Assembly: GCA_022646745.1 (NCBI GenBank)
Contig: CP060262.1
Span: forward strand, 390,001-422,000
Length of the DNA stretch: 32,000 nucleotides
Reading direction: 5' to 3'
Source: Planctomycetales bacterium
Lineage (GTDB): Bacteria; 4484-113; JAFGCY01
The first letter of the stretch is position 1; the number at the start of each line of letters is the position of its first letter. The translations under genes and the position numbers were made by a program. Under the pieces are notes generated by a model. The model ran no database searches. It had not been told where the DNA came from and saw only the letters and a list, made by a program, of their open reading frames with translations. This document shows positions 1,254 through 31,466 of the stretch, piece after piece.

Positions 1254-1255
1254 GG

Positions 1256-1277
1256 GGAGGCCAGACGAGAGTCTGGC
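1256..1277 (+). repeat. GGAGG + hairpin GCCAGAC-GAGA-GTCTGGC directly after the BCCP stop
   Basis: The exact 23-nt string GGAGGCCAGACGAGAGTCTGGCA recurs at 24897. GNRA tetraloop. Confidence 0.8.
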
Positions 1278-1284
1278 AGCGGGA

Positions 1285-1317
1285 TTCCGGTTTCGGGTTT
1301 CGGGTTTCCGGTTTCGG
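1285..1317. repeat. Heptamer array (GGTTTCG-like, about 4.5 units)
   Basis: TTCCGGTTTCGGGTTTCGGGTTTCCGGTTTCGG. Its reverse-complement counterpart is at 2549-2579. Confidence 0.8.
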
Positions 1318-1361
1318 GGGAATAGGCTCGCATGCGCTCGGGTGGCTAGTGTGCTAGCCCG

Positions 1362-1454
1362 GTCAATCAGTCAAGAAGTCAAACAGTCAACCACCTGCAT
1401 CGAGCATTTCCACAAGGGCAGTTGTTGACTCTGTGACTGATTGACTATGTGACT
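1362..1454. repeat. Long 8-nt-periodic word palindrome: (GTCAANNN)x4, ~35-nt spacer, (TTGACT/GTGACT NN)x4
   Basis: GTCAATCAGTCAAGAAGTCAAACAGTCAACC ... GTTGACTCTGTGACTGATTGACTATGTGACT. Confidence 0.85.
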
Positions 1455-1748
1455 TTTTCCATGGCCATCAAACGCTCGGGTGGCGACGAGCAAGGTATCA
1501 AAGGGATTCCTTAACGCTAAGGCGCGAAGACGCGAAGGAAGTCAAGGGAAAGCATGTTCCATCGAAAAGCTAAGTACCGGCGTTGCCCCGCAACGCCTGC
1601 ACGCGAGCGGCTGCTTCGTGCGCAATGAGTCTCGCGAGTGAGGGCAAGTTGCCAACTTCTTCTCTGTGTACTCTGTGGCTCTGTGGTCATACGAACGGGA
1701 ACATCTGCCACGAAAGCATCATGACAACAGGCATATCCCGTATTGCCA
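1362..1748 (+). repeat. Composite repeat family A, copy 1 (~390 nt): word palindrome, GGCTCG/CGCTCGGGTG box, TTCCTTAACGC...AAGGAA box, GTACCGGCG hairpin, CTCTGTG words, CATATCCNGTATTGCCA
   Basis: Modules are collinear with 3773-4153, including an exact 34-nt block (1507-1540 = 3914-3947). Confidence 0.8.
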
Positions 1749-1810
1749 CTCCCTCTGACAAGCGAACTTCGAGGCATGCACTACCAGTCGCGGCCAGGCC
1801 GCGCCGGTAC
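1574..1810 (+). repeat. Shorter unit bounded by the same GTACCGGCG-hairpin ... hairpin-CGCCGGTAC termini
   Basis: GTACCGGCGTTGCCCCGCAACGCC at the left end, GCGGCCAGGCCGCGCCGGTAC at the right end. Confidence 0.55.
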
Positions 1811-2092
1811 AACCTTCCTTTGGGAATTCTTCTCCTTATATTCCTCCGCACTTCCGCGTCAATGAAACCAGACGGCGAGCAAGTTGTCACTCGCGCGAAT
1901 GCGCGGCTCGCTTGCGTCCGGGTGGCAACGAGGCATTCGGAGCGGTTCTGGTTAACGCTGGGTCGCTGGGACGCTGTGGAATCCAAGGAAACAATTTCCC
2001 TTTGCTCGCCAAGGACCGGCGGCGCCCTGCGAAGCCAACACGCGAGTTGTGGCAACGGGGCAGGATGCTGCGCGAGTGAGGCAATCGAGATG

Positions 2093-2150
2093 GAAGTAGG
2101 GATGGGGTAACACCCCATCCAGGGCGGCGGTATTACCGCCGCCCTACTTC
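2093..2150 (+). repeat. Y-shaped element type 1: outer stem GAAGTAGGG/CCCTACTTC enclosing hairpins GATGGGGT-AAC-ACCCCATC and GGCGGCGGTA-T-TACCGCCGCC
   Basis: The pairing can be read directly from the sequence. Further copies at 8552, 10917 and (inverted) 25062. Confidence 0.85.
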
Positions 2151-2220
2151 ATACGGAAATGGCAACGAGCGGTAATCAAGGGGCTTGCTTAACGCTAAGT
2201 CGCAAATGAAAGAAAGGTTT

Positions 2221-2265
2221 GTCAGGCTCATTGCTCACTCTTCATTGCTCATTGCTTGCCGGCAT
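2221..2265 (+). repeat. TCATTGC heptamer-word module (GTCAGGCTCATTGCTCACTCTTCATTGCTCATTGCTTGCCGGCAT)
   Basis: Near-identical copies at 4288-4332 and 4439-4483. Confidence 0.85.
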
Positions 2266-2548
2266 CCACTCCCAGTCGCACGAAGTGTGCGCCGCTACCC
2301 ATTCCACTCACGTTCATCGTAAGGTTATTGAAAATGAATTCTCCGCGCCTCTCTTCAATCTCAGCGTCTCCGCGTCAATAAAACCAGGCTGGCGAGCAAG
2401 TTGTCACTCGCGCGGCTGCGCGGCTCGCATGCGCTCGGGTGCATGCGAGGTGACGATGCGAAGGTTTTGTCAACGCGGAGCCGCGGAGTCGCGGAGGAAT
2501 TCAGGAGAAGACTCTCCACAGGATCAACAAGTGCTGCAGTTCTGATTG

Positions 2549-2579
2549 CCGAAACCGGAAATCGGAAACCCGATACCGG
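2549..2579. repeat. Inverted counterpart of the 1285-1317 heptamer array (CCGAAAC-like)
   Basis: CCGAAACCGGAAATCGGAAACCCGATACCGG. Confidence 0.8.
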
Positions 2580-2630
2580 GTTGTCAGAATGGATTCCGGC
2601 CTCCAAGCCAAGCTTACAGCTTGGCCACCC

Positions 2631-3554
2631 CTAGCCCGCCGCTTCCTGCTCCATGTCGCTATTGCCGCTGTTGCGGTGCTGCTCCATCCACCAGGCGCCG
2701 TAGTCCACCATCGCACGCACGCGCACCAGGCGGCTGTCGGCGCTGCCGACGCGGCCGTAGAGCGTATGCTCAGTGTCGCGCTCGAACTCATCCTTGATGG
2801 CGATGAAGTCGCTGTCATTGCTGGCGAGGTCCTCGAACTCAACCCAGCGGCGCTGGCCGTCGATCAGCATGCTGCAGCCCTCACGCTGCATCCGCTTGCC
2901 CTGCCAGCGGCCGATGTGCTCGGAGAGGTGCAAAGTCGAGTTGGTGCGCACGCCGAGTGACAGCACCTGGCCGTCGAGCTCATACAGGCGGCCGAGCGGG
3001 GAGCGCTCGCCGAACTGGCAGTCCAGCGGATGCTCACGGGTGATTTCGTGGGCCAGGCGGCCCCAGGCGCAGACGCTGACGATCGGGTGCATGCTGCGCT
3101 TCACGCCGGGCAGGCTGCGGAACAGCTCAGCCACGCGGCCGACGCCGCGGCTGGGGGAGATCTGCGGGATGTAGGGGGCCATTTCCTCGCGGATGCTCTG
3201 GTGCCATTCAGCGGGGACCGGCGGGTCCTGCCAGTTGGCGGGATCCGTGTTCCAGGTGGTGAAGGCCGGCATCACGATCGTGCCGTCGGGGGTGACGACA
3301 TTGACCAGCGCACTGATCACGGTCTGGGCACCGCCGCAGACCCAGCCGAGGCTGGACATCGAGCAGTGCACCAGCACGTCCATGCCGGGCTCAAGCCCGA
3401 GCTTGCGCAGGTCACGCTCCAGCGCCTGCTGGGTGACGGGAACCTGGCTGCGCCCGACGACGCTGTGTTCCGAGATGACATCACCGTTGCTCCCGTTTGT
3501 GGACGGCGCGAACGGAGTGCGTTCGATCTGCTGGATTGTGTGCCCCGGTCTCAT
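2631..3554 (-). CDS. Aminoglycoside N3-acetyltransferase family (AAC(3)/YokD-like) protein
   Basis: 307-aa ORF. LRKLGLEPGMDVLVHCSMSSLGWVCGGAQTVISAL..DGTIVMPAFT and the later LHLSEH block fit the AAC(3) family layout. TATAAT (3566..3561) lies 6 nt upstream of the ATG. Confidence 0.75.
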   Translation of the reverse strand: MRPGHTIQQIERTPFAPSTNGSNGDVISEHSVVGRSQVPVTQQALERDLRKLGLEPGMDVLVHCSMSSLGWVCGGAQTVISALVNVVTPDGTIVMPAFTTWNTDPANWQDPPVPAEWHQSIREEMAPYIPQISPSRGVGRVAELFRSLPGVKRSMHPIVSVCAWGRLAHEITREHPLDCQFGERSPLGRLYELDGQVLSLGVRTNSTLHLSEHIGRWQGKRMQREGCSMLIDGQRRWVEFEDLASNDSDFIAIKDEFERDTEHTLYGRVGSADSRLVRVRAMVDYGAWWMEQHRNSGNSDMEQEAAG

Positions 3555-3744: not shown

Positions 3745-3772
3745 CATTTGGGCAAATAGGGAGCAGGAAGCC

Positions 3773-3864
3773 AGTCAAGCAGTCAACGAGTCAATAAGTC
3801 AATCACTGGCTTCGAGCAGGCTTAAACGATTTAGTTGACTCTGTGACTCCGTGACTATTTGACT
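3773..3864. repeat. Second copy of the AGTCAA/TTGACT word palindrome
   Basis: AGTCAAGCAGTCAACGAGTCAATAAGTCAATC ... GTTGACTCTGTGACTCCGTGACTATTTGACT. Confidence 0.85.
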
Positions 3865-4153
3865 AGTGATAGGCTCGCATGCGCTCGGGTGACGGGAAGG
3901 CTGTATCTACGGTTTCCTTAACGCTAAGGCGCGAAGACGCGAAGGAAACGAAGGGAAAGAAAGCCCCAACGGAACACAGTACCGGCGCGGCCCTGCCGCG
4001 ATTGCACGCGAGATGTGGCAATTGAGGCAAGGAATGACGTGAGAGAGGGTCTGTTGCCAACAATTTCTCTGTGAACTCTGTGGCTCTGTGGTTATACAAA
4101 TCGAGGCATCAACCGAGAAGTCATCAGGATGTAAGTCATATCCAGTATTGCCA
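3773..4153 (+). repeat. Composite repeat family A, copy 2
   Basis: Collinear with 1362-1748. The exact 23-nt ATAGGCTCGCATGCGCTCGGGTG (3869-3891) is also at 1322-1344. Confidence 0.8.
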
Positions 4154-4287
4154 GGCCCGTCTGGCCTTTTGAGTCAAGCGGTGGCGTGACGAGGCGCGCA
4201 ACTGCGCGATATGCTGCGTGCTCGCCTGTCTGGTTTTATTGGCGCAGAGGCGCAGAGATTCAGGAGGCGCAGAGGATTAAATTGCAT

Positions 4288-4332
4288 GTCAGGCTCTTTG
4301 CTCATTCTTCATTGCTCATTGCTTGCCTGCAT
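4288..4332 (+). repeat. TCATTGC word module, copy 2
   Basis: GTCAGGCTCTTTGCTCATTCTTCATTGCTCATTGCTTGCCTGCAT. Confidence 0.85.
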
Positions 4333-4438
4333 GCTCTCCCAATCGCACGAAGCGTGCGCCGCTACTTCCTGGCAATATGGAGCTTAGGGTTTGATTAACA
4401 CAGAGATCCACAGAGTCCCACAGAGGTATTCAATATCC

Positions 4439-4483
4439 GTCAGGCTCATTGCTCATTCTTCATTGCTCATTGCTTGCCGGCAT
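4439..4483 (+). repeat. TCATTGC word module, copy 3
   Basis: GTCAGGCTCATTGCTCATTCTTCATTGCTCATTGCTTGCCGGCAT. Confidence 0.85.
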
Positions 4484-4534: not shown

Positions 4535-4535
4535 G

Positions 4536-6887
4536 CTACCAGTCGTTGTCATTCCACTCCAACTGGGCCTCGTCGTAGCTGCCATCGGGCAGCTTCGTGA
4601 GGAAGCGGCTCGGGCGGTTGATGATGCGCTGGAAGTCATGCGTCTCGCTGATCATCGGGTAGCTCATGAACAGCAGCTGCTCGGCGCGCGTGACCGCCAC
4701 GTAGAACAGCCGGCGCTCCTCGTCCTCGCCCTCCGGGTCCGTGCGGCTCATGCGGTGCGGGATCACGTCGTCCTGCACATGCACGAGGAACACGGTGTGC
4801 CACTCCAGCCCCTTGGCCTGGTGGATCGTTGACAATGTGACCGCGCCCTCCTCCGGGTCGTCCGCGCCCTCGACCTCCTGGCCCTGCAGCTCGCTGCCGC
4901 TGAAGCTGCCGTTCAGGCCGATCTCGGCTAGGAAGGCGGTGACCGTGTCGAACTGGTTGGCGAAGATCTCCAGCTGCTCGAGGTCGTCCAGCCGCTGGCG
5001 CCAGTTCTCCCATTTCATCTGCAGGTAGTCACTGTAGCGCTCGTCGATCACGCGGCGGATCAGCTCGGAGGGCGGCGTTGTCAGCGCCTCCGGCTCGAGC
5101 TTCTCGAGGAAGCTCTTCAGTTCTCCGAGCGTCTCCTTGGCCTTGCCACGCACGCCTTCCACCACACCGTTGTAGATGAACTTCTGCAGTGGGTTCTGCA
5201 CGCGCAGCTTGCCGACCACACCGGCGACCGTCTTCGGGCCGACGCGATCGCACATCTCGAGCATGCGTTGCCAGGCCAGCTCGTCATGCGAGTTGGCAAG
5301 CACCAAGAGGTAGCTCAGCACGTCCTTCAGGTGCGCCTGCTCGAAGAAGCGCAGGCCGCCGCGCACCACGAAGGGAATGCCGCGGCGCGTGAACTCCAGC
5401 TCGACCTCCAGCCGGTTGGCATGCGCGCGGTAGAGCACGGCGATCTGCTTGTAGTCCAGCTGGTGCTCCTCGCGCAGGGACAGGATCTGCTCGCAGACGA
5501 ACTCGGCCTGCTCCTCGCGCGAATTGCAGGCAACCAGCAGCGGGCGGTCCTCGGAGCTGGGCTTGACACTGACCAGCTGCTTCTTAAACTCAGCCGGTCC
5601 CTCGCCAAGGATGGCGTTGGCAAGGTCCAGCACCTGCGGCGTGGAGCGGTAGTTCGTCTCCAGCTTGCAGATGTTGGCACCGGGGAAACTCGTGGGGAAG
5701 CTGAGGATGTTGCGGAAGTCGGCACCGCGGAAGGAGAAGATGCTCTGGGCGTCGTCACCGACCACGAACAGGCTGCGCCCCTGGGGAGCCTCCGGGCTGT
5801 CCTCGACGGGCTCCTCCAGGTCGTCATTCGGCTCAGGCACTTCTGTGCGCAGGGTGGTGGACATGATGTCAATCTGCTGCCCGGCGAAGCGAGCGGCGTT
5901 GAAGGGATCGGAAGGAGTAGCAGAAACAGAATGAGAATCAGAAGGAGAATCATAATCAGAAGCAGAAGCAGCAGGCAGCGGGGCGGGTACGTCCGACTCG
6001 TCATCGCCAACTGGTACGGCCGGTTTCTCCTCACCGCGCGGGTCGCCGAATGTCTCCGCGCGCTCCCTCATCATCTTCTCGGTGACGGGGAAGTTCATCC
6101 ACTTCACGATCTCGGCCTGGATGTGGTTGACATCCTGGTACTCGTCGACGAGCAGCTGAGTGAAGCGGCCGCATAGCCGGCGGCGCACGCCGGGGTGTTC
6201 CTGCAGCAGCTTGAGCCAGTTGATCAGCAGGTCGTCAAAGTCCATCTGGTTGCTCTGGAACTTGCGCTCCGTGTAGAGGATCAGCACGCGCTGGATCTCG
6301 GCGTACTGGTCATACAGGTGCGGGTAGCGCGCGGAGAGCAGGCTTTCGAGGTCGGTGTTGGTGTTGACCATTGCGCTGCCGATATCAACCAGCACGCGGT
6401 CGCTCGGGAAGCTCTTGCCGCTGCCCTCGATGCCGGCCTCCGTGCGGCAGAGCTTCATCACCTGGCGCTGGTCGGCACTGTCGAGGATCGTGAAGCTGGA
6501 GTTGAAGCCGATGTGGCGCGAGTAGCGGCGCAGCACTAGGTTGGCAATCGAGTGGAAGGTCCCGCCGGTGATTTCGCGCGCCGGGCGGCCGATCAGGGCC
6601 TCGGCGCGGTCCAGCATGCTCTTTGCCGCCTTGTTGGTGAAGGTCGTCATCATGATCCGGCGCGGGTTGATGCGCAGCTCGCCAATCAGGTAGGCGATGC
6701 GGTAGACGATCACCCGCGTCTTGCCACTGCCGGCCCCGGCCAGCACCAGCGTGGCACCGAGCGGCGCGGTGACTGCGGCGTACTGCTGCTCATTGAGCTC
6801 GGCGCGCCAGTCGATGTTGAAGGGGGAGTGACGCTCCTCAGCCGTGCGGCTGAGCCTGATCCTCCTGATGTCGCGGTTCTCCGTCAC
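4536..6887 (-). CDS. UvrD/PcrA/Rep-family ATP-dependent DNA helicase carrying a ~100-aa low-complexity insertion between helicase motifs II and III
   Basis: LNEQQYAAV, Walker A AGAGSGKT, LLVDEYQD, VVGDDAQSIFSFRGA, TNYRS, TIHQAKGLEW and LFYVAVTRA motifs are all present in order. GTG start at 6887..6885. Confidence 0.9.
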   Translation of the reverse strand: MTENRDIRRIRLSRTAEERHSPFNIDWRAELNEQQYAAVTAPLGATLVLAGAGSGKTRVIVYRIAYLIGELRINPRRIMMTTFTNKAAKSMLDRAEALIGRPAREITGGTFHSIANLVLRRYSRHIGFNSSFTILDSADQRQVMKLCRTEAGIEGSGKSFPSDRVLVDIGSAMVNTNTDLESLLSARYPHLYDQYAEIQRVLILYTERKFQSNQMDFDDLLINWLKLLQEHPGVRRRLCGRFTQLLVDEYQDVNHIQAEIVKWMNFPVTEKMMRERAETFGDPRGEEKPAVPVGDDESDVPAPLPAASASDYDSPSDSHSVSATPSDPFNAARFAGQQIDIMSTTLRTEVPEPNDDLEEPVEDSPEAPQGRSLFVVGDDAQSIFSFRGADFRNILSFPTSFPGANICKLETNYRSTPQVLDLANAILGEGPAEFKKQLVSVKPSSEDRPLLVACNSREEQAEFVCEQILSLREEHQLDYKQIAVLYRAHANRLEVELEFTRRGIPFVVRGGLRFFEQAHLKDVLSYLLVLANSHDELAWQRMLEMCDRVGPKTVAGVVGKLRVQNPLQKFIYNGVVEGVRGKAKETLGELKSFLEKLEPEALTTPPSELIRRVIDERYSDYLQMKWENWRQRLDDLEQLEIFANQFDTVTAFLAEIGLNGSFSGSELQGQEVEGADDPEEGAVTLSTIHQAKGLEWHTVFLVHVQDDVIPHRMSRTDPEGEDEERRLFYVAVTRAEQLLFMSYPMISETHDFQRIINRPSRFLTKLPDGSYDEAQLEWNDNDW
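5921..5975. repeat. AGAATG/AGAATC/AGAAGC hexamer-word array inside the helicase coding sequence (antisense to the gene)
   Basis: CAGAAACAGAATGAGAATCAGAAGGAGAATCATAATCAGAAGCAGAAGCAGCAGG. It shares the exact 19-mer GAAACAGAATGAGAATCAG with intergenic 31441-31459. Confidence 0.8.
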
Positions 6888-8028: not shown

Positions 8029-8030
8029 CA

Positions 8031-8137
8031 GCAGAGAGCAGGGAGCAGAGAGCGGAAAGCAGGCTGAGCTAGCAGAGAGCTGAGAGCAGATAGCGGAGTG
8101 GGCTTGCAGAGAGCAGATAGCTGATAGCAGACTGATG
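8031..8137. repeat. Degenerate heptamer microsatellite (GCAGAGA-like, about 15 units)
   Basis: GCAGAGAGCAGGGAGCAGAGAGCGGAAAGCAGGCTGAGCTAGCAGAGAGCTGAGAGCAGATAGCGGAG... A short inverted counterpart CTGCTATCTGCTTTCTGCTTTCTGC is at 8305-8329. Confidence 0.75.
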
Positions 8138-8449
8138 TACTTCCACCTGCAAGCTTCGCTGCGCTCGGGCAGCAGTTTCGCCATGTGCAGCGGCTTTCTA
8201 AACGCGGAGTCGCGGAGACGCAGAGAATAAAGGAGAAGAGAAATCCAACGCTGGGTCGCTGGGGCGCTGGGAATCTCTAAACGAACAAGTTCCGGCTGCC
8301 GGGTCTGCTATCTGCTTTCTGCTTTCTGCAAACCGTCGGATTGCTTCGCTGCGCTCGGGTCACAGAACGGCAGTGTGTAACGGTTCTCTTAACGCGAAGG
8401 CGCGAAGACGCGAAGCGTTTCAAGGAGGGAAATATCAAATCTGAAATCC

Positions 8450-8746
8450 GTATCGGCGCTGCCCGGCAGCGCCAGCGCGCGTGATGCTGCGAAAGGGCAA
8501 GCCCTTGCGCGAGTGAGACTTCTTTACAGGAGAAACTGACTGCCTGAAAGGGAAGTAGGGATGGGGTAACACCCCATCCCGGTGGCGGTATTACCGCCAC
8601 CCTACTTCAAACTACAGTTCAAGCCAGTGTTGCTTTGAACCACCAAGCCACAAGAACACCAGGGCTTATGACAATCCCTACCTAGCGCAAGGTGGTGCGC
8701 ACGAAGAATCAGCTCGCGTGCTGGCGTCGCCGGGCGACGCCGGTAC
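8450..8746 (+). repeat. Inverted-repeat-bounded ~297-nt unit (family B, copy 1) containing Y element type 1
   Basis: Left end GTATCGGCGCTGCCCGGCAGCGCCAGCGCGCGTGATGCTG. The reverse complement of the right end is GTACCGGCGTCGCCCGGCGACGCCAGCACGCGAGCTGAT. Collinear with 10816-11105. Confidence 0.7.
8552..8608 (+). repeat. Y-shaped element type 1, copy 2
   Basis: GAAGTAGGGATGGGGTAACACCCCATCCCGGTGGCGGTATTACCGCCACCCTACTTC. Confidence 0.85.
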
Positions 8747-8864
8747 ATTATTAATGAAAGTTGATTCCATAAACGGAAGAAAAACTCTTTGTGCTCTGTG
8801 CTCTCTGTGGTTGGAATCTCAGAGTGCTCCTCTTACTCGTTGTGCGACTCGCGCCGCACCTCCG

Positions 8865-9191
8865 TCAGCTAAAAAGCTGAGCCAGCAACTCAGTATGCTG
8901 GCGTTCGCAAACTTCGCCGCAGGCGCGGAACAGTTCCTTTAAGTCGATCCAGTCATCCAGTTCCTCGTCCGTCGCCACATGCGCGATGAACCACTCCGGG
9001 TAGGCCGCAGCGTCATGGCGGCGCTGGACCAGCACGCCGAACAGGTAGTCCCCCGCCGGGTTGCGCATCACGAGCATGCGGCGCATGAGCTGCGGGTGCA
9101 GCGTGCAGTCCTCCGCGAACTGCTGGTAGACCAGCTCCGTTGTCAGCTCGAAATCCGGGCGGTGCTCGAAGCGCAGCTCGAACTCAGGCAT
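8865..9191 (-). CDS. Hypothetical acidic protein (108 aa), translationally coupled to xseA
   Basis: ATG 9191..9189 overlaps the xseA stop (sense ATGCCTGA). The longer ORF-track version (to 9332) would run 140 nt inside xseA. The product MPEFELRFEHRPDFEL... is not recognisable and is not XseB-like. Confidence 0.55.
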   Translation of the reverse strand: MPEFELRFEHRPDFELTTELVYQQFAEDCTLHPQLMRRMLVMRNPAGDYLFGVLVQRRHDAAAYPEWFIAHVATDEELDDWIDLKELFRACGEVCERQHTELLAQLFS

Positions 9192-10530
9192 CGCCGTCCT
9201 CGCGGCGCACGCGCATTTCACCGGCCGCCGGCTGCACGCGCAGCACTTCACCGGGGGCCACGTTCGCGGCATCACGTACGAGGCTGCCATCCTCACGCCA
9301 GACGAGCGAGAAGCCCAGCCCGAGCGGGGCACGCGGGTCGAGCGCCTTCAGGTGCTTCTCCATGTTGCCAACGCGCTGCCGGGCATCCTCGCTGGCATTG
9401 CGCGTAAGTCTGAGGAATTCGGCGGACAGGCGCGGCAGGCGGTAGGCATCCTCCTCCATGCGGCGCATCGTGAGCGTTGCCATCCTGTCCAGGAGCTCGC
9501 CGTGGCGGCCCTCGCTGCCGAGCCCGCTGTATTCCACGGCCAGCTCCGCCAGCTCATTGCCAAGCTCATCCAGGCGCTGGCTGCGCTCCTCCACGCTGCC
9601 CGCCACATCACGCAGCAGGCGGTGGTCGAACAGGCGCTTCAGGCGCTCGTTCGCATTGCCGAGGTTGTTGCGCAGCTCACGCACCAGCCGGCCGGTGCGG
9701 TCGCCGATCGCGCCGCGCAGCTCATTGACATCGGGGGTCACGACCTCGGCCGCGGCACTGGGGGTCGGGGCGCGGAAGTCGGCGACGAAGTCCACGATGG
9801 TGAAGTCGATCTCATGCCCGACGCCGGTGATCACCGGCGTCTCGATCTCCGCCAGCACACGCGCCAGCTTCTCGTCATTGAAGCACCAGAGGTCCTCGAG
9901 GCTGCCGCCGCCGCGCACGAGCAGGATGCTGTCGAGGCCGGGGAAACGGTCGGCGGCCTGCAGCGAGGCGATGATCTCGGGCGCTGCCTTGTCACCCTGC
10001 ACGCTGCAGGGGAAGAGCACGACCTCCATGTAGGGCGCACGGCGCCTGAGCACGTTCAGCACATCCTGCAGGGCAGCGGTGGCGATGCCGGTCACGATGC
10101 CGATGCGGCCGGCCACGGCGGGGGGGCGCAGCTTGCGTTCCGGGGAGAACAGGCCCTCGCCGTCGAGCTTGCGCTTGAGCGCTTCGAACTGGGCGGCGAG
10201 GTCGCCCTGCCCGCTCTTGATGATGTCGTCACAGATGATCTGGTAGTTGCCGCCCTTCGGGTAGACGCGCACGTCGCCATGCACCATCACGGCGTCGCCG
10301 TCGGCGGGCGGGCGGGCCTTGCGACGGCCGAAGCCGAACCAGGCGCAGGTGATCTGGCTGTCGGCGTCCTTCAGCGTGAAGTAGAGGTGGCCGCTGCCAG
10401 CGAGGCGCACATTGGAGGCCTCGCCCTTGACCCAGACGCTGCGCAGCTCGGAGTCGCTCTCGAGCAGCTGCTTGATGCGCGCGGTCAGGCGCGAGACGGT
10501 GATTTCGGAGTGGGCCGTGCTTCCTTCCAC
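9184..10530 (-). CDS. xseA: Exodeoxyribonuclease VII large subunit
   Basis: N-terminal OB-fold signature ITVSRLTARIKQLLESD..VWVKGEASNVRLAGSGHLYFTLKDADSQITCAWF, the catalytic core GIVTG..GAALQD..RGGGSLEDLWCFNDE, and a helical tail. GTG start with TATAAT 6 nt upstream. Confidence 0.9.
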   Translation of the reverse strand: MEGSTAHSEITVSRLTARIKQLLESDSELRSVWVKGEASNVRLAGSGHLYFTLKDADSQITCAWFGFGRRKARPPADGDAVMVHGDVRVYPKGGNYQIICDDIIKSGQGDLAAQFEALKRKLDGEGLFSPERKLRPPAVAGRIGIVTGIATAALQDVLNVLRRRAPYMEVVLFPCSVQGDKAAPEIIASLQAADRFPGLDSILLVRGGGSLEDLWCFNDEKLARVLAEIETPVITGVGHEIDFTIVDFVADFRAPTPSAAAEVVTPDVNELRGAIGDRTGRLVRELRNNLGNANERLKRLFDHRLLRDVAGSVEERSQRLDELGNELAELAVEYSGLGSEGRHGELLDRMATLTMRRMEEDAYRLPRLSAEFLRLTRNASEDARQRVGNMEKHLKALDPRAPLGLGFSLVWREDGSLVRDAANVAPGEVLRVQPAAGEMRVRREDGDA

Positions 10531-23425: not shown

Positions 23426-23453
23426 CCTGCGGGCTGCAACTCGACTTCTGGTC

Positions 23454-23459
23454 TATAAT
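23454..23459 (+). promoter_or_regulatory. -10 box TATAAT, 6 nt upstream of ATG 23466 (the uORF ahead of the CNNM gene)
   Basis: Spacer 23460-23465. Confidence 0.45.
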
Positions 23460-23465
23460 CAGCCG

Positions 23466-23525
23466 ATGGAAGCCACCGACGACGAGGCCTCGCGGATACG
23501 CCCAGGGGGGGTGATCGCGCGCTGA
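23466..23525 (+). CDS. Putative leaderless 19-codon upstream ORF (MEATDDEASRIRPGGVIAR) preceding the CNNM gene
   Basis: TATAAT (23454-23459) lies exactly 6 nt upstream of ATG 23466, the geometry seen at six other genes here. It stops 10 nt before the TTG start of the next gene. Support is positional only. Confidence 0.3.
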   Translation: MEATDDEASRIRPGGVIAR

Positions 23526-23535
23526 CGCGGCCGGC

Positions 23536-24855
23536 TTGGAAGTCCTGATAGCCATCCTGATCATCGCCGTGCTGATAATGCTCAGCGCATTCTTCAGCGG
23601 CGGCGAACTGGCGCTGATGTCGCTGGACCTGGTCTCACTCGAGGACCGGGCAAACTCCGGCGACCGCATCGCGCAGATGCAGCTCACGATGCGCCGCCGC
23701 CCACAGCGCACGCTGGGCACGATCCTGATCGGCAACAACATCGTCAACATCATCGCGCCGACCTTCGCGACACTCACCGCGCAGAAGCACCTCGCCCCGC
23801 TGCAGGGCATCGGCGAGCATGCCACGCTGATCAGCACCATCGCCATGATCGTGCTGGTGACGATCTTCGGCGAACTGGTGCCGAAGACCTTCGCCGCGGT
23901 GCGCGGGCAGCGCGTTGCCAAGCTGGTGACACCGCCGCTGTACATCCTGGACATGCTGCTCCTGCCCGCCAACTGGCTGCTGGAGGCGGTGCTCTCGCCG
24001 CTGATCCGCTGGCTGACCGGCGGGCGCACCAACGTCGAGCAGCGCATCGGCCCCGGTGAGCTGCGGGCGGTGCTGACGGCGGCGATGGCCGGCGGGCATG
24101 TCAACAAGCAGGATGTGGCGATCGCGCGCGAGGCGATCCAGATGTCGCACCGCGACCTGGAGGACGTGATGACCCCGCGCGTGGAGATTGAGGCCCTGCC
24201 GGTGACGGCGACGGTCGGCGAGGCGATGCACCTGATGGACTCCACCGGGCACTCGCGCATCCCGCTGTACGAGGAGAGCGTTGACAACATCACCGGCGTG
24301 CTGATCCTGAAGGACCTGGTGCACGTCAGCCTGCGGGCCGCGGTCGGCGGGCTGGACCCGGGGGACCGCTGGGCCTCGGAGCCGGCTGTGACCTACCGCC
24401 GCGAGGTGCTGCACTACCCCGGCACAAAGGGCATCCTCGAGACGATGAGCGAGATGAACCGCAACCGCGTGCACCTCGTGGTCGTTGTCGACGAACATGG
24501 CGGGACCGACGGGATCGCCACGCTGGAGGACATCATCGAGGAGCTGATCGGCGACATCCGCGATGAGACGGACACCGAGCACCACGCGGACATCGTGCGC
24601 ATCGGCGAGGGCTTCATGCTGATCACGGGGCGCGCGCGGATCGACTCGATTGACATGCTGGACGGGGTGGACACCACTGAGCTGGACAGCAACAGCGTGG
24701 GCGGGCTGATGATGGAGAAGCTGGACCGCGCGGTGGTGGCCGGTGACGTGCTGGAACTGCCGGGCCTGAAGCTGACGGCGCTGAAGGTGATTGGCAACAC
24801 GGTGAAGCTGATCAGGGTGGAGGAAGTTGGGGAAGAGGAAACAGAATCAGAATGA
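23536..24855 (+). CDS. CNNM/CorB-HlyC family protein (DUF21 membrane domain, CBS pair, CorC_HlyC domain); putative Mg2+/Co2+ efflux or hemolysin-like transporter
   Basis: SAFFSGGELALMS and FGELVPK (DUF21), a CBS pair (VMTPRVEIEAL..., HLVVVVDEHGGTDGIATLEDIIEELIGDI), and a C-terminal CorC domain. The only in-frame start after the upstream stop is TTG 23536, and it has no SD. Confidence 0.88.
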   Translation: MEVLIAILIIAVLIMLSAFFSGGELALMSLDLVSLEDRANSGDRIAQMQLTMRRRPQRTLGTILIGNNIVNIIAPTFATLTAQKHLAPLQGIGEHATLISTIAMIVLVTIFGELVPKTFAAVRGQRVAKLVTPPLYILDMLLLPANWLLEAVLSPLIRWLTGGRTNVEQRIGPGELRAVLTAAMAGGHVNKQDVAIAREAIQMSHRDLEDVMTPRVEIEALPVTATVGEAMHLMDSTGHSRIPLYEESVDNITGVLILKDLVHVSLRAAVGGLDPGDRWASEPAVTYRREVLHYPGTKGILETMSEMNRNRVHLVVVVDEHGGTDGIATLEDIIEELIGDIRDETDTEHHADIVRIGEGFMLITGRARIDSIDMLDGVDTTELDSNSVGGLMMEKLDRAVVAGDVLELPGLKLTALKVIGNTVKLIRVEEVGEEETESE

Positions 24856-24896
24856 GAAACAGCAGACCGGAGCGGAGGCTTCCAGCCGCCGGAATC

Positions 24897-24918
24897 GGAG
24901 GCCAGACGAGAGTCTGGC
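24897..24918 (+). repeat. Second copy of the GGAGG + GCCAGAC-GAGA-GTCTGGC hairpin, downstream of the CNNM gene
   Basis: Identical to 1256-1277. Confidence 0.8.
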
Positions 24919-25061
24919 AACTGTCTGAAACAGTTTAGATAGTCTTAATAGTGGAAGAAGTTGTTAGTTGCTAGTTCTTAGTGGCAGCGCTGCTCACCGC
25001 TGGAAAGTGCTCAGTTGCCAGCCAGAGCAATCGCCCTCTCGCGAAGAGAGCAAAACTAGGA

Positions 25062-25118
25062 GACGTAGGGTGGCGGTAATACCGCCACCGGGATGGGGTG
25101 TTACCCCATCCCTACTTC
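25062..25118 (-). repeat. Y-shaped element type 1, copy 4, inverted orientation
   Basis: The reverse complement matches the 8552 copy through both inner hairpins. One mismatch in the outer stem. Confidence 0.85.
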
Positions 25119-25134
25119 AGATCCAAGAGCCGGT

Positions 25135-25394
25135 GGAGCAGCGTTGCGCAGGCGTAGCCGAAGCTGCGCAAGCTTTGTAACGAATATAGCCAGCGAAGCT
25201 GCGCTTCGCGGCTCCTCCGGAGTGTCGCTCCAAGAGCGACATGGCCCCGTAGCTCCCAGAGCCACACTCCGATCCGTTGTCAGACTGTCGTCTGAGCTCC
25301 TTGCCGAGCTTGCGCTCGACCTCCCCGCCTGACTCGCGTCAGGCCTCCGAGCCCGGCTTGCGCCGGACCTCCGTTGTCAGCTTTACAGCTGACA
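25135..25394 (-). repeat. Composite repeat family C, copy 1 (~250 nt): GC-rich box, Y element type 2, hairpin/CCTCC array
   Basis: Collinear with 27657-27900 at high identity by eye. 29405-29642 is a more diverged third member. Confidence 0.8.
25219..25270. repeat. Y-shaped element type 2
   Basis: GGAGTGT CGCTC-CAA-GAGCG ACATGGCCCC GTAGCTC-CCA-GAGCCAC ACTCC. Confidence 0.85.
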
Positions 25395-25447
25395 TCCGCT
25401 CCAAACTCCAACCCCCAAACTCGTTGTCAGCTTTATAGCTGACCTCC
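25280..25447 (-). repeat. Array of six short hairpins, each followed on the plus strand by (A/C)CTCC (GGAGG + hairpin in the sense of the PLP-enzyme gene)
   Basis: TCAGAC-TGTC-GTCTGA, CGAGC-TTGC-GCTCG, CCTGAC-TCGC-GTCAGG, CCGGC-TTGC-GCCGG, TGTCAGCT-TTAC-AGCTGACA, GTCAGCT-TTAT-AGCTGAC. Confidence 0.85.
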
Positions 25448-25469
25448 GCTACGCCCGACTACCCAGGTC

Positions 25470-26713: not shown

Positions 26714-27616
26714 ATGCTCGATCAGTTCGTACAGCAGGCCCTCGAAAGGGCGAGAATCCGCCCCAGCCGCGCCAAGGGCCAGCATTTCCTGATAGATGAC
26801 CGGGTGCTAGCGGAGGTTATTCGGGCCGCCGAGCTTACGCCGGAGGATTACATAGTCGAGATCGGGCCGGGGCTCGGCACACTGACCACTTCACTGGCGC
26901 GCCGTGTGAAGAAGGTGTTCGCCTTCGAGCTGGACGAAGGCCTGGTGCGCTACCTGCACAACTGGGTGCTGCACGACAACCCGAACATCGAGCTGGAGGA
27001 CATCGCCTTCAACAAGTACGTGCTGGAGAAGGTGATCGAGCGCGCCAAGGCTGACGGGGCACCGCTGAAGATCGTGACCAACCTGCCCTACCAGATCAGC
27101 TCGGCCTTCCTGCACACTCTGGTGGAATACGCCGAGGACATCCAGCTGAGCGTGGTGATGCTGCAGAAGGAAGTCGCGCAGCGCGTGACGGCGCGGCCCG
27201 GCGACCCGGGCTACAACTCCTTTTCGATCTACCTGCAGACCTGGCTGTCGGCGCGGATGGTCTGCGATGTGCCGGAAGCCAGCTTCATGCCGGCGCCGAA
27301 GGTCCGGAGCGCGGTGATCCGCATCCGCCCGCTGGAGGACCGGGAGAAGCCGATGCCTCTCAACCGCGACATCTACTTCCACCTCGTTGAGAACGTGTTC
27401 CGCCAGCGGCGCAAGCAGATCAGCAATTCGCTGAACTTCGCCTTCGGGCACCTCTCCCAGGAGCAGGTGCAGCAGGCGCTGGAGACGGCGGCGATAGACC
27501 CGGTGATGCGCGCGCAGGACCTGTCGATGGATGACTACGTACGCCTCAGCGATGCTCTCGACGGGCTGGGCGTGATGGCGAAGCGGAAGGGGCGGGATTG
27601 GGAGGAGGAAGAGTAG
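26714..27616 (+). CDS. rsmA: 16S rRNA (adenine1518/1519-N6)-dimethyltransferase
   Basis: KGQHFLIDDRVLAEVI, the SAM-binding VEIGPGLGTLT, and NLPYQISS. I prefer the ATG at 26714 because TATAAT (26702-26707) lies 6 nt upstream. The ORF-track ATG at 26690 is the alternative. Confidence 0.88.
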   Translation: MLDQFVQQALERARIRPSRAKGQHFLIDDRVLAEVIRAAELTPEDYIVEIGPGLGTLTTSLARRVKKVFAFELDEGLVRYLHNWVLHDNPNIELEDIAFNKYVLEKVIERAKADGAPLKIVTNLPYQISSAFLHTLVEYAEDIQLSVVMLQKEVAQRVTARPGDPGYNSFSIYLQTWLSARMVCDVPEASFMPAPKVRSAVIRIRPLEDREKPMPLNRDIYFHLVENVFRQRRKQISNSLNFAFGHLSQEQVQQALETAAIDPVMRAQDLSMDDYVRLSDALDGLGVMAKRKGRDWEEEE

Positions 27617-27660
27617 TCAGTAGGCAGTGGGCAGAAGGCAAAAGGCAGGAGGCAGAGGGA
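27617..27660. repeat. GGCAGNN heptamer array starting right after the rsmA stop
   Basis: GTCAGTAGGCAGTGGGCAGAAGGCAAAAGGCAGGAGGCAGAGGGA. Confidence 0.75.
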
Positions 27661-27743
27661 GCTGCGTTGCGAAGGCGAAGCCGTAGCTGCGCAGGCTCTG
27701 TCTTGTCAGCAAAGCCAGTGATGCTGCGCTTCGCGGCTCCTCC

Positions 27744-27796
27744 GGAGTGTCGGTCTCAAGACCGACAGGGCCTAGTGGCTCCCAGAGCCACACTCC
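27744..27796. repeat. Y-shaped element type 2
   Basis: GGAGTGT CGGTC-TCAA-GACCG ACAGGGCCTA GTGGCTC-CCA-GAGCCAC ACTCC. Confidence 0.85.
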
Positions 27797-27805
27797 GATC
27801 CATTG

Positions 27806-27900
27806 CCAGCTTTACAGCTGGCCTCCTGGCCGAGCTGGCGCTCGACCTCCCCGCCCGGCTCGCGCCGGACCTCCGTTGCCAGGCTAACAGCCTGGCCTCC
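27806..27900 (-). repeat. Array of four hairpin + CCTCC units abutting the CYTH stop codon
   Basis: CCAGCT-TTAC-AGCTGG CCTCC, CGAGC-TGGC-GCTCG ACCTCC, CCGGC-TCGC-GCCGG ACCTCC, CCAGGCT-AAC-AGCCTGG CCTCC. Confidence 0.85.
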
Positions 27901-29197: not shown

Positions 29198-29433
29198 GAA
29201 GGAGAGGTTGGGGGTTGGAGTGGGGAGTTTGGATGGTGGAAGAAGTGGGAGAAGTGAGAAAGTAGGGCAAGGCCACCGTGCCTTGCCGAGGATGGCAACT
29301 GCCATCCGTTTGGTGGCCAGTTGTCAGTGGCCAGTGGTCAGTTGCTGTCGGAGTAGCGGTGTAGAGGCAAAGCCCTAGGTGGGCAATCTTGATCCCTTGT
29401 AACAAAGCCGGCGAAGCTGCGCATCACGGCTCC

Positions 29434-29485
29434 GGAGTGTCGCTCTGAGAGCGACAGGGCCATGTAGCTCTGAGAGCTACACTCC
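29434..29485. repeat. Y-shaped element type 2
   Basis: GGAGTGT CGCTC-TGA-GAGCG ACAGGGCCAT GTAGCTC-TGA-GAGCTAC ACTCC. Confidence 0.85.
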
Positions 29486-29522
29486 GACCTCCTAACTCCA
29501 ACCGCCAAACTCCAAACCTGTT

Positions 29523-29642
29523 GCCAGACTTTCGTCTGGCTTCCGGGCCAATCTTGCGCTCGACCACCGAGCCTGGCTCGCGCCAGACCTCCAATGGTGC
29601 AGCTTTGCAGCACCTCCGATGGCACAGCTTCGCAGTGCCTCC
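29523..29642 (-). repeat. Array of four hairpin + CTCC units abutting the MoeA-like stop codon
   Basis: GCCAGAC-TTTC-GTCTGGC (same stem as 1260/24901), CTGGC-TCGC-GCCAG ACCTCC, GTGCAGC-TTT-GCAGCAC CTCC, GGCACAGC-TTC-GCAGTGCC TCC. Confidence 0.8.
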
Positions 29643-29644
29643 GG

Positions 29645-31324
29645 CTAGTAGATCAGCACCTCGACTTCCTCGCCGTCGGAGTACTGGCGGCCGCCCTCGA
29701 TCGGCAGCAGGGCCTGGCCACGGATGTAGTCCAGCCAGGGGTCGCCCTCCTGCCCGGCATAACGCGTTGCCAGCCGGCCGCTCTCGCGGTCGCGGCGGTA
29801 GCGGATGGCGCGCAGGCTGTCACGTTCGGTCTGGATGCGCGAGCCGTTCTCCAGCACCACGATCTCCGTGCTCTGGAAGTTGCGCGGGCGCAGGTACTTG
29901 TGTGACAGCGGACGTACGAATGCCACGAAGGCGCTGATCGCCTCCGGCAGTGAACCGGGCATCGAGACCACCGGGCGGCCGTTGACCTTGCCGGCGGTGA
30001 TGTGGCGGCAGGGATCGACATCAATGCCCGCCATGTAGACGGTGCCCAGCGAGGCGATCACGTCATGCGCCAGTGAGCGGTGCCGGTGGTGTGAGCCGCC
30101 GACGATGTACAGCACATCAACCTGGCTGGTCCAGACCTTCATAGCATTGCGCAGCTCACGGAAGCCGTCCGGTGCATAGCCCATCAAAAGCGATGCCACC
30201 TGCGCACTCTGGGAGAGGTGGTAGCAGGCCGTGGCGATCGGGCATTCCTCCTCGCGCTTCTCCTGGCCTCCGGCCCGGCCGGCCACCGGGAAGGGCAGTC
30301 CGAGGCTGGCGATGCCGACCACGGGCTTGCGGAACACCTCGACCTCGTCAACACGCAGGGCCTTGAGCATTGCTAGGTCCAGCGGGCCGAGCACGGCCTT
30401 CTCCGGGATCATCGCTTCCTTGTTGCGGGCCCAGGAGCCGATCGGCAGCAGGTTGCGCTCCGGCTTCTCAAACACGCGCGGCAGTTCCACCTTGCCATTC
30501 TGGTACTGGTTCACCAGCTCCCAGTCACGCGGCGGCTCCTCAACGGGGGCGGCCTCCTCCGGCTCGGGTTCGTCACGGCGCCTGCGGCGGCGGCGGTCCG
30601 GCTCGGGCTTGGGCGGTTCCTTGTAGTCGAACTCGTACTCACCGGGCAGCGGCACGAGGTCATCCAGTGGGTAGACCATGTCCGCCCCGCGCGGCACCTC
30701 CTGGCCGATGGCGACCGGGATCGCCTGGCCGTGGCGCAGCGCCTCATCCTTGCGGTTGCTCTGGGGCGGGCGGCGCAGCTGGAACTCGGCGGGCGGGACC
30801 TCCACATCACTGTGGCGCTCCTCACGGCGCTCAACGGCCGGGCCGCTGTCCTCGTAGTCATCCTCAAACTCAGCCTCGGCGGCGTTGATCTGGAGGGACT
30901 CGAAGCTGGCCTCCTCCTCGTCCTCCTCGGCCTCGCCGTCAGCGCTCTTGCGCTTGACCTTCTCGTCACGGCCGATCATGGACATGTCGATCGCGGCATC
31001 GGCGGTGATCGCCTCTTCCTCGATGATGTCCTCCTCCTCGACCTCGATCACTTCCTCGGCCTCGTCCTCGGCCATGTCCATGACGGACTGGCCGAGTTCG
31101 GCGGCGTGCTCCTTGAGCCAGGCACTGGCCTTCAGGTCACGGGACATGATCGCGAGGCCATCCACGAGGGACAGCGGACGGGAGGGCTGGTTGCCGCGTG
31201 CGGTGACGGGCTTGGCCAGGCGGTAGCCCAGCGCCTTTGATGATTTGATGGAAAGCGTGCGCGGGGGATAGGTCAGATCCATGATCCGCGCCAGCGCTTC
31301 CGCAAGATTTGGCTTGTCAGACAT
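29645..31324 (-). CDS. Divergent MoeA/gephyrin-E-like protein with large acidic and Arg-rich insertions
   Basis: The N-terminus LAEALARIMDL...ALGYRLAKPVTA..PSRPLSLVDGLAI parallels the MoeA domain I motif (P.fd.SamDGyA). GQAIPVAIGQEVPRGADMVYPLDD, VFRKPVVGIASLG, VDVLYIVGGSHH, GRPVVSMPGSLPEAISAFVAFVRP and a terminal GEEVEVLIY follow in MoeA order. Confidence 0.65.
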   Translation of the reverse strand: MSDKPNLAEALARIMDLTYPPRTLSIKSSKALGYRLAKPVTARGNQPSRPLSLVDGLAIMSRDLKASAWLKEHAAELGQSVMDMAEDEAEEVIEVEEEDIIEEEAITADAAIDMSMIGRDEKVKRKSADGEAEEDEEEASFESLQINAAEAEFEDDYEDSGPAVERREERHSDVEVPPAEFQLRRPPQSNRKDEALRHGQAIPVAIGQEVPRGADMVYPLDDLVPLPGEYEFDYKEPPKPEPDRRRRRRRDEPEPEEAAPVEEPPRDWELVNQYQNGKVELPRVFEKPERNLLPIGSWARNKEAMIPEKAVLGPLDLAMLKALRVDEVEVFRKPVVGIASLGLPFPVAGRAGGQEKREEECPIATACYHLSQSAQVASLLMGYAPDGFRELRNAMKVWTSQVDVLYIVGGSHHRHRSLAHDVIASLGTVYMAGIDVDPCRHITAGKVNGRPVVSMPGSLPEAISAFVAFVRPLSHKYLRPRNFQSTEIVVLENGSRIQTERDSLRAIRYRRDRESGRLATRYAGQEGDPWLDYIRGQALLPIEGGRQYSDGEEVEVLIY

Positions 31325-31334
31325 TGAACTGAGT

Positions 31335-31340
31335 ATTTTA
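31335..31340 (-). promoter_or_regulatory. -10 box TAAAAT, 10 nt upstream of the MoeA-like ATG
   Basis: Plus strand ATTTTA at 31335-31340, ATG at 31324..31322. Confidence 0.35.
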
Positions 31341-31370
31341 GCGCTAAAGAAGGGATCAGGTTGCAGGGAG

Positions 31371-31466
31371 CTGGGAACAGGGGCAGGGAAGAGGCAGAAG
31401 GCAAAAGGCAGGAGGAGAAATAGAATGAGAATGAGAATGAGAAACAGAATGAGAATCAGCAGAGCC
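31371..31466. repeat. GGCAGNN-type heptamer array running into an AGAATG/AGAATC hexamer array
   Basis: ...GGCAGAAGGCAAAAGGCAGGAGGAGAAATAGAATGAGAATGAGAATGAGAAACAGAATGAGAATCAGCAGAGCC. Confidence 0.8.

Follow-up and report, generated by a model that had tools for sequence, protein, structure and literature searches.

Why should eight intergenic gaps among housekeeping genes be far longer than their neighbours and be filled with repeated modules? The question is raised by a 32,000-nt stretch from an uncultured Planctomycetales bacterium (assembly GCA_022646745.1, contig CP060262.1, positions 390,001 to 422,000 of the forward strand), called here the window, which has a G+C content of about 62% and a housekeeping gene content. 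As the initial annotation described, its eight oversized gaps (gaps 1 to 8: 1377, 981, 851, 742, 614, 283, 447, and 253 nt) add up to 5,548 nt, about 17% of this 32-kb region, and the modules named there are present at or near the places that it gave. The gaps probably represent a mosaic of mobile-derived, hairpin-forming palindromic elements of at least five families, accumulated in tandem or nested at permissive intergenic sites of the lineage. According to the best-supported reading, the mosaic resembles bacterial interspersed mosaic elements (BIMEs), would partly serve as RNA structure in 3' untranslated regions (UTRs), and contains units similar to repetitive extragenic palindromic (REP) sequences, here called F2, nested in units of another family, F1. 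Sequence comparison shows that F1, in turn, is the cargo-less form of a small cassette carrying a GxxExxY gene.

The F1 arm has a length of about 100 nt and consists of a box A, GGCAACGAGG, a spacer of 8–15 nt, GGTTTT.T.AACGC, a 4-nt word arranged as word-N-CGC-word-N-CGC-word, and GAAT.AAGGAG. The words are GAAG, TGGG, GGAG, or AGAG, and within one arm of the window they are usually identical three times. The GGCTCGC(A/T)TGCGCTCGGGTG box and the TTAACGC plus triple 8-mer box, listed apart in the initial annotation, are both real, but they are two parts of this one arm. At least nine arms are found in the window. Arms form left/right inverted pairs, and F1 palindromes have a T-run on the 5' side and an A-run on the 3' side. 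Gap 1 is made of three F1 units head to tail, two of them complete (E1 and E2) and one a solo arm (E3), which pairs as a hairpin with the right arm before it; all lie between the two members, 1,231 nt apart, of a mirrored pair of GGTTTCG/CGAAACC arrays. The copies in the window are either cargo-less or hold F2 units as content, and no GxxExxY gene or remnant was found there by tblastn. The F1 features of gaps 1 to 4 are the following:

1280-1318: GGTTTCG heptamer array, outer layer of gap 1, with an inverted partner at 2549-2579 (31 nt, 90% complementary)
1326-1905, plus strand: E1, complete F1-shell element
1326-1348: box A of E1
1355-1460: GTCAA/TTGAC word palindrome inserted in E1
1473-1560: left arm of E1 (TTAACGC and three GAAG words)
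1574-1810: F2 element enclosed by E1, with a CTCTGTG array at 1662-1686
1826-1905: right arm of E1
1906-2423, plus strand: E2, complete F1-shell element
1906-1990: left arm of E2 (TGGG words)
2013-2298: F2 element of E2, holding the double hairpin Y1 (2092-2154), a partial arm (2175-2215), and a TCATTGC array (2226-2256)
2330-2423: right arm of E2
2424-2510, plus strand: E3, solo F1 left arm with box A GGCTCGCATGCGCTCGGGTG, TCAACGC, three GGAG words, and GAATTC
2549-2630, minus strand: CGAAACC array, then a hairpin adjoining the stop codon of the acetyltransferase gene (2631-3554, minus strand)
3765-3870, plus strand: GTCAA palindrome, gap 2
3873-3955, plus strand: F1 left arm, gap 2 (three GAAG words)
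4190-4280, plus strand: nested F1 arm with AGAG words, inside the F2 element of gap 2
8150-8238 and 8342-8430: F1 left arms in the nested layers of gap 3, with a partial TGGG array at 8240-8275
10555-10575: box-A-like sequence, gap 4
10595-10712: GTCAA palindrome, gap 4
10716-10800: F1 left arm, gap 4

Outside the window, the same arms enclose a gene. In a related locus (L013), F1 arms with GGAG words, AATAAAGGAGAAG, and an outer box flank a gene for a protein of 140 residues that matches TIGR04256 'GxxExxY protein'/PDDEXK_3 (E 6e-41). An adjoining second arm pair encloses only the last 16 codons of this gene (94% identity, E 2.6e-5) and, judging from its sequence, is a classical deletion derivative. 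A second locus (L146) holds a 93%-identical GxxExxY gene between the same arms, with other neighbour genes. Every examined GxxExxY gene is arm-flanked, in five independent contexts: these two loci, the GC-rich L087, the alphaproteobacterial metagenome-assembled genome (MAG) L158, and a Bacteroidota site (L031, L150, L160, L161, and L164). In the latter, found in Draconibacterium-type genomes and relatives, the cassette occupies a conserved position between the genes for the methylmalonyl-CoA mutase subunits, with spacers of approximately 20–40 nt on either side; its ATG follows the left arm directly and its stop codon falls within the right arm.

The protein itself bears D72, E82, and K84, invariant in 30 homologues, as a D...E.K motif, and the nearest matches of its AlphaFold (AF2) model (pLDDT 89) are Cas4 and lambda exonuclease, both weak (best E 6e-3, TM about 0.5). 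PDDEXK_3/GxxExxY is a large family that the authors of Pfam list among those of unknown function (PMC3424549). No description of the F1 arm repeats was found in the literature on GxxExxY/PDDEXK_3, nor by searching with the literal arm sequence, and the link between GxxExxY and palindromes with CGC-spaced 8-mers across phyla appears to be both undescribed and directly testable.

The arm design extends well beyond these genes. A degenerate arm-core pattern recovers at least 120 metagenome loci (L026-L145) from many habitats, from AT-rich to about 64% G+C. An inverted partner is present for 64 of the 126 arm matches listed, lying downstream in 59 and leaving loops of 3–400 nt; in 59 of these 64 palindromes, the purine-rich arm comes first and the pyrimidine-rich arm second. 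Some of the metagenome palindromes hold nested word arrays, including the CTCTGTG/CACAGAG words of the window, and GxxExxY is the only recurrent neighbour gene of the arms among the matches listed. In viral contigs, the pattern is found on two phage contigs of IMG/VR (L016, 8540-8690; L017, 4930-5075) as palindromes of approximately 150 nt that have triple-8-mer arms and lie immediately 3' of stop codons, and the element type is therefore present in viral DNA too; the GxxExxY profile gave no confirmed locus in viral contigs. The functional RNA strand was also sought by eye in two GxxExxY elements from G-U versus A-C mismatches, and this approach was dropped because the outcome was inconsistent. 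As a separate observation, one metagenome locus (L053, 481-1896) has an IS4/Tn5-type transposase gene between CGC-8-mer arms 1.7 kb apart, probably an insertion sequence (IS) that entered a palindrome; some IS elements target REP sequences.

In E. coli and Pseudomonas, REP/BIME sequences and the REP doublets known as REPINs are intergenic hairpins with a GTAG-like foot, associated with REP-associated tyrosine transposases (RAYTs), whose gene lies between inverted repeats in the so-called REPtron. The position of GxxExxY between its F1 arms parallels this layout. By analogy, the elements would have been moved by an enzyme, for which the GxxExxY nuclease is the obvious candidate in the case of F1. 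Tentatively, GxxExxY (PDDEXK_3) proteins may thus be the enzymes of unrecognised palindrome-associated nuclease elements across phyla, a PD-(D/E)XK counterpart of RAYT-REP, whose cargo-less hairpins seeded the nested mosaics. If so, these elements would consist of a nuclease gene in the loop of a long hairpin with arms made of CGC-spaced word arrays, and their cargo-less hairpins would have spread between genes. In the preferred reading, the elements would spread by insertion beside or into existing palindromes. An unlinked enzyme, or small nucleases that the elements encode (GxxExxY in the case of F1), would drive this in trans, and arrays would grow and shrink by replication slippage with the pairing between arms kept. 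The constant association of GxxExxY with a recognisable palindrome design provides a testable functional hypothesis for an orphan family, and a cheap DNA signature for its elements.

Several observations weigh against mobile elements driven in this way. Most hairpin-only metagenome copies lack a neighbouring GxxExxY gene; among the matches listed, only two of 120 loci have one. The commonest word pattern of the 126 matches listed is ABA (48), ahead of AAA (27), ABC (26), AAB (17), and ABB (8); in ABA, words 1 and 3 are alike and the middle word is different, which is not what slippage predicts, and both this pattern and the purine-rich-arm-first order remain unexplained. The Bacteroidota cassette looks vertically inherited, and because its locus is conserved and its open reading frame (ORF) fits the loop exactly, the arms may help to express or process the ORF and have no part in mobility. 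Among the lineage loci compared, both the GTCAA palindrome and Y1 are restricted to the strain of the window. The sequences compared include no transposition event that displays exact junctions or target duplications, and the locus that points to movement of an F2 unit (L025, see below) is a short metagenome contig that could be a mis-join at a repeat.

The reality of the repeats themselves is well supported. In a BLASTN self-comparison (E<1e-3), 71% of the gap bases have a significant match at another gap site, compared to 2% in 12.1 kb of coding controls. The three composite collinear block pairs of the initial annotation were recovered with 74%, 82%, and 83% identity; the last block is present once more at 29350-29600, this third copy having 72%. 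Tandem Repeats Finder places about forty arrays in the gaps, with periods of 6, 7, 8, or 24–25 nt and without unique spacers, unlike CRISPR arrays. Folding with RNAfold against dinucleotide shuffles shows seven of the eight gaps to be strongly structured on one strand or both, with z-scores between −3.5 and −10, versus +0.7 to −4.3 for coding controls; gap 8 by itself folds ordinarily (z about +0.7), and comprises the left half of an element that continues past the window end with its right half. Since gaps 1–2 and 5–8 are 99.6–100% identical in contigs from other samples and assemblers, an assembly artefact is excluded. An origin by local duplication and slippage alone would fit the whole-word differences in array length between copies, but modules are also found in other genomes and loci, which already contradicts it; whether by such duplication or by faulty assembly, a purely local origin is highly improbable.

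This distribution is that of an acquired trait. Box A (GGCTCGCWTGCGCTCGGGTG) is found in five stretches of species-representative genome contigs, two of them on the 1.88-Mb contig JAWLAZ010000001.1 of 'MAG: bacterium AC1.30' (L008/L010), which carry F1 arms, F2 ends, the double hairpin Y2, and GGAGG hairpins. Contrary to a confinement of the modules to the window, F1, F2, and Y2 are present in these stretches and in L012, L013, L018, and L025. In L012 and L013, where XseA has 85% and 79% identity to that of the window, the orthologous gap holds like modules in other combinations. By contrast, L014/L015 (59% identity) keep the gene order TauE, CNNM, lyase, KsgA ... CYTH ... MoeA, XseA without any module match, and the junctions that take up 614 and 447 nt in the window are reduced there to a 4-nt overlap and a 21-nt spacer. 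Because these syntenic relatives lack the modules and have compact junctions, the mosaic is an acquired, derived trait of a sub-lineage.

The repeat regions also turn over much faster than adjacent genes. Between the window and L018, a strain 93–95% identical, the flanking genes differ by 0.7–5.3%, while gap 7 shows 16.1% divergence and, in addition, 66 gap columns, including whole-word indels and swapped hairpin units. Furthermore, the KsgA-CYTH gap of L018 (2357-3840) contains an AT-rich cargo that encodes a 237-residue membrane-like protein, a HicB-like antitoxin, and a 109-residue ORF; box A is reversed there, and a GTAGCGGCG end is present. In the window, the corresponding place is taken by 210 nt (27589-27798) that begin at the KsgA 3' end and include the GGCAG array, the long hairpin, and Y2, and the gaps are therefore also integration sites for accessory genes. 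The window offers a natural system for studying repeat-driven expansion between essential genes of an otherwise ordinary chromosome, and the speed of its turnover.

F2 elements, the second family, span 230–390 nt when cargo-less. Their ends begin with GTA(C/G)CGGCG followed by an 8-bp hairpin—the GTACCGGCG-hairpin termini of the initial annotation—and continue either as CACGCGAG (type A) or as CGAYTGGGAG (type B). In five copies of the window, and also in L012, an F2 end sits about 25–30 nt inside the left arm of F1. Compensatory changes preserve its hairpin: 89.7% of the cells are paired versus 73% in shuffles, 19 cells are changed on both sides versus 4.8 expected (a value reached by none of 500 shuffles), and slid-register controls do not exceed 53% paired. 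The F2 elements outside gap 1, and the ORF that one of them holds (ORF124), are these:

3979-4365, plus strand: F2 element of gap 2, A end at 3979, B end at 4330-4365
4067-4091 and 4293-4323: its inner CTCTGTG and TCATTGC arrays
8450-8746: F2 element of gap 3 with A-type ends on both sides, enclosing Y1 (8550-8612)
10816-11105: F2 element of gap 4, enclosing Y1 (10916-10978)
31356-32000, plus strand: cargo-bearing F2 element of gap 8, cut by the window end
31356-31412 and 31415-31459: its GGCAGNN and AGAATG arrays
31472-31522: its A end; the B end begins at 31988-32000
31578-31952: ORF124, between the A and B ends

These features invite the explanation that REPs or REPINs are represented by the F2 ends, possibly also by the GGAGG hairpins, and were spread by a RAYT of the Y1 transposase type (IS200/IS605-like) encoded elsewhere, the mosaic being an unusually rich BIME. 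The GTAG or GTAC directly 5' of a covarying hairpin, the inverted pairing of the ends, and the hairpin arrays at gene 3' ends, where REPs also lie, would all fit, as does the fact that target duplications are not visible (no direct repeats surround the six F2 elements whose ends were read). However, Pfam lists contain no RAYT or Y1 transposase gene for the window or for L001-L025 (about 150 kb, largely overlapping or redundant), the ends lie 230–390 nt apart, or about 520 nt around ORF124, and are of two types, unlike REPIN doublets, and the F1 arms are tied to another protein, GxxExxY. This explanation is considered rather unlikely for the mosaic as a whole. In the F2 foot, GTAC is at least as frequent as GTAG. 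The likeness to REP/BIME comprises intergenic hairpins with a GTAG-like foot, covarying stems, mosaics of units and linkers, and location at gene 3' ends; the differences are that the protein here is a PD-(D/E)XK nuclease rather than a Y1/HUH transposase, that the arms are about 100 nt of CGC-spaced 8-mers, and that the units are nested.

The statement of the initial annotation that the window lacks a transposase, RAYT, or reverse transcriptase holds, by Pfam, for the ORFs taken as genes, but ORF124 sits between F2 ends. Coding partners exist for both families: GxxExxY for F1, in relatives and outside the window, and, for F2, ORF124, enclosed by a pair of ends where the window stops. ORF124 has no Pfam or NCBIfam match and an insignificant sequence match in the PDB (E 0.07), and its homologues are near-identical copies only. 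After ORF124, beyond the window end, L018 (7990-8085) has the B-type end and mirrored AGAATG and heptamer arrays, so that the right half of the unit is the mirror of the left. The unit with its flanking arrays also adjoins rpsF/rpsR in L025, at 98.4% identity and with a different number of array words, which points to a possible duplication or movement as a block. Gap 8 and ORF124 are 100% identical between the window (31325-32000) and L018 (7331-8006). Because this identity contrasts with the neighbour genes (0.7–5.3% different) and gap 7 (16%), it suggests that the unit may have been recently acquired or exchanged. The F2 pattern gave no matches in viral contigs.

A third kind of module lies directly at gene ends. 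Among hairpins with a 6-bp stem and a 4-nt loop, GNRA loops are found in 11 hairpins of the gaps and in none of 83 in coding DNA; all 11 are preceded by GGAGG, GGAAG, or GGATG, and all 11 are on the sense strand just 3' of a gene's end. The GGAGG-GNRA motif is present ten times in the window and also in L008, L012, and L018, with no occurrences in L014/L015 or in 617 kb of unrelated loci. The hairpins have no T-tails, being followed by CAAC or GGGGA, and between 24800 and 29700 there is a single terminator-like site, whereas shuffles yield more; intrinsic terminators they are therefore not. They are distributed as follows:

1256-1280, plus strand: GGAGG, 6-bp stem and GAGA-loop hairpin, directly 3' of the biotin-carrier stop codon
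4485-4536, minus strand: two GGAGG-hairpin units directly 3' of the UvrD stop (24-nt period, 2.2 copies)
about 8835-8864, minus strand: GGAGG-GCGA hairpin after the gene for a 155-residue protein
24870-24921, plus strand: GGAGG hairpins, gap 5
25276-25460, minus strand: about six GGAGG hairpin units, gap 5
27802-27899, minus strand: four GGAGG hairpin units, gap 6, after the CYTH stop codon
29520-29643, minus strand: five GGAGG hairpin units, gap 7, after the MoeA stop codon

The GNRA loops and the sense orientation point to a likely role at the RNA level in 3' UTRs. The hairpins would be transcribed on the sense strand, where they may protect the mRNA 3' end in a REP-like manner or punctuate transcripts, and the arrays are candidates for a lineage-specific mRNA 3'-end structure. 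A broader possibility is that the modules are RNA or DNA structures selected in place—3'-UTR stabilisers, stems whose processing excises or regulates small ORFs, as in ORF-bearing intervening sequences of 23S rRNA, or protein-binding arrays—which were rarely duplicated, with mobility secondary. The strict sense orientation of the GNRA hairpins, the ORF that exactly fills the inter-arm loop in Bacteroidota, and the covariation of the F2 and Y2 stems agree with it. Against it, units recur in unrelated contexts and organisms, are missing from the syntenic L014/L015, turn over very fast in sequence and indels, and commonly occur as deletion derivatives and solo arms. Moreover, neither the window nor 20 metagenome loci match any Rfam family at the gathering score, and for the window this holds even at E<=1. 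As an explanation of the whole mosaic, selection in place seems improbable, and mobile-derived elements, probably in part used as 3'-UTR structures, are preferred.

How far do such elements depart from known kinds? The initial annotation found no described family to which they could be matched, and neither Rfam nor the literature searched provides one. It also held the gaps to go well beyond ordinary REP, BIME, or MITE (miniature inverted-repeat transposable element) loads; the load is indeed far above ordinary, but to place the gaps beyond anything known is too strong, since the parts resemble known kinds, namely inverted-repeat elements that have given rise to deletion derivatives, hairpins with GTAG or GTAC as in REPs, and mosaics of the BIME type. 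In short, the parts are variants of inverted-repeat, REP-like, and foldback-like elements. Nor is there one modular vocabulary, as had been proposed, but at least five independent families with differing distributions: the CGC-8-mer arm is present in very different metagenomes, and GGAGG-GNRA is lineage-specific. The modular build itself stands, with recurring modules whose order is partly conserved (an F1 arm followed by an F2 end, GGAGG hairpins at gene 3' ends), and the tiling of intergenic space applies to the eight gaps but not to five smaller ones (82–232 nt, 20638-23535), which have no modules.

Like MITEs, the F1 and F2 units of the gaps have terminal inverted repeats and no coding capacity, and share their ends with gene-bearing parents (the GxxExxY cassette of L013 and the ORF124 unit, respectively). 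Unlike MITEs, the parents carry GxxExxY or an orphan ORF instead of a recognised transposase, no target-site duplications were seen, and the inverted repeats stand out by their length and by the repetition within them. An origin as integron-type gene cassettes, with attC hairpins, was also considered. Small cargo ORFs (GxxExxY, the HicB-like gene, orphan ORFs) are typical of cassettes, the units are in tandem, and the arms start with ..AAC and finish with GTT... However, a complete attC does not adjoin the ORF, which lies inside the hairpin loop; copies that consist of the hairpin only are dispersed one by one over unrelated intergenic sites, and no integrase was found in the loci, which leaves this origin with very little probability.

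More distant parallels exist for single traits of the mosaic. Cyanobacterial short tandemly repeated repetitive (STRR) heptamer arrays and the nested small dispersed repeats of Nostoc are likewise intergenic 7-nt arrays and repeats inside repeats; here, phylum and words are different, and the arrays are mirrored around a core and combined with long structured modules. An excess of heptameric repeats in bacteria has been reported (PMC4692102). The Foldback (FB) elements of Drosophila have long inverted repeats made of variable numbers of short tandem repeats, many of them empty and some with genes, but they are eukaryotic, of kilobase scale, and without sequence relationship, so that the likeness is an analogy only. 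In the intervening sequences of 23S rRNA, an ORF lies in the stem formed by flanking complementary sequence; the elements described here lie outside rRNA and involve another protein family. The likeness is that the Coxiella intervening sequence, with its S23p ORF, is a small selfish element too (PMC4990558).

The remaining modules are double hairpins and word arrays. Y1 and Y2 are discrete double-hairpin modules, and both stems of Y2 show compensatory changes. The word arrays (6–8 nt) were shown to travel with the units that they enclose, and are often mirrored around other units (8032/8787, 8101/8303, 29204/29483, and the sides of the ORF124 unit). A strictly nested arrangement was rejected because the F2 pair of gap 2 (3978/4366) crosses a CTCTGTG/CACAGAG pair (4075/4416). 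These modules are located as follows:

4399-4425 and 4444-4474, minus strand: CACAGAG and TCATTGC arrays, gap 2
8030-8135: AGCAGAG arrays, gap 3, pairing with 8787-8807 and 8304-8329
11119-11170: CTGATT and CTGACAA arrays, gap 4
11169-11226: Y2 double hairpin, gap 4
24823-24862: hexamer array spanning the CNNM stop codon, gap 5
25058-25122: Y1 in reverse orientation, gap 5
25135-25214 and 25211-25276: long hairpin and Y2, gap 5
25399-25422: CCAAACT array, gap 5
27612-27655: GGCAGNN heptamer array, gap 6
27657-27802: long hairpin and Y2, gap 6
29204-29240: G-rich array, gap 7, mirrored by a CCAAACT array at 29483-29518
29305-29342 and 29350-29491: GTGGCCA array, then long hairpin and Y2, between the mirrored arrays of gap 7

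For metagenomics, mosaics of this kind carry a caveat, as they fragment assemblies and create spurious ORFs of up to 175 residues (e.g., 1583-2110). Contigs bearing the mosaic are mostly of 1–7 kb. Three stop-free ORFs of 108–175 residues cross the mosaic of gap 1 (1583-2110, 1687-2118, and 2219-2545); the first has no Pfam match, and all three are in all likelihood spurious, with a risk of being annotated as genes by mistake.

Among the genes between the gaps, the following define their borders:

37-1253: biotin carboxylase and biotin carrier (Pfam), the biotin-carrier gene at 720-1253, plus strand
2631-3554, minus strand: aminoglycoside-type N-acetyltransferase
4536-6887: UvrD
9184-10530: XseA
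11273-20637: three tandem PKD-domain paralogues of about 1040 residues each

A short-chain dehydrogenase, TauE, a CNNM/CorC transporter, a Cys/Met-metabolism lyase, KsgA, a CYTH protein, and a MoeA-like protein are also encoded. The XseA homologues above 60% identity are metagenome proteins, and the remoter ones belong to Anaerolineae. The three paralogues of about 1040 residues were once candidates for RND pumps, an identity rejected because they hold PKD domains and are not transporters; their stop and start codons overlap, and they share up to 95% identity across stretches of 150–300 nt. Finally, the CAGAAT/CAGAAG hexamer arrays of the gaps, among them the one spanning the CNNM stop codon (24823-24862), are also found in-frame within coding DNA, both in UvrD (5887-5986), where they encode a Ser/Asp-rich linker (AASASDYDSPSDSHSVSATPSD), and at the C-terminus of the ORF at 22657-22977 (22899-22977), where, read by eye, they apparently form a Gln/Lys-rich tail.

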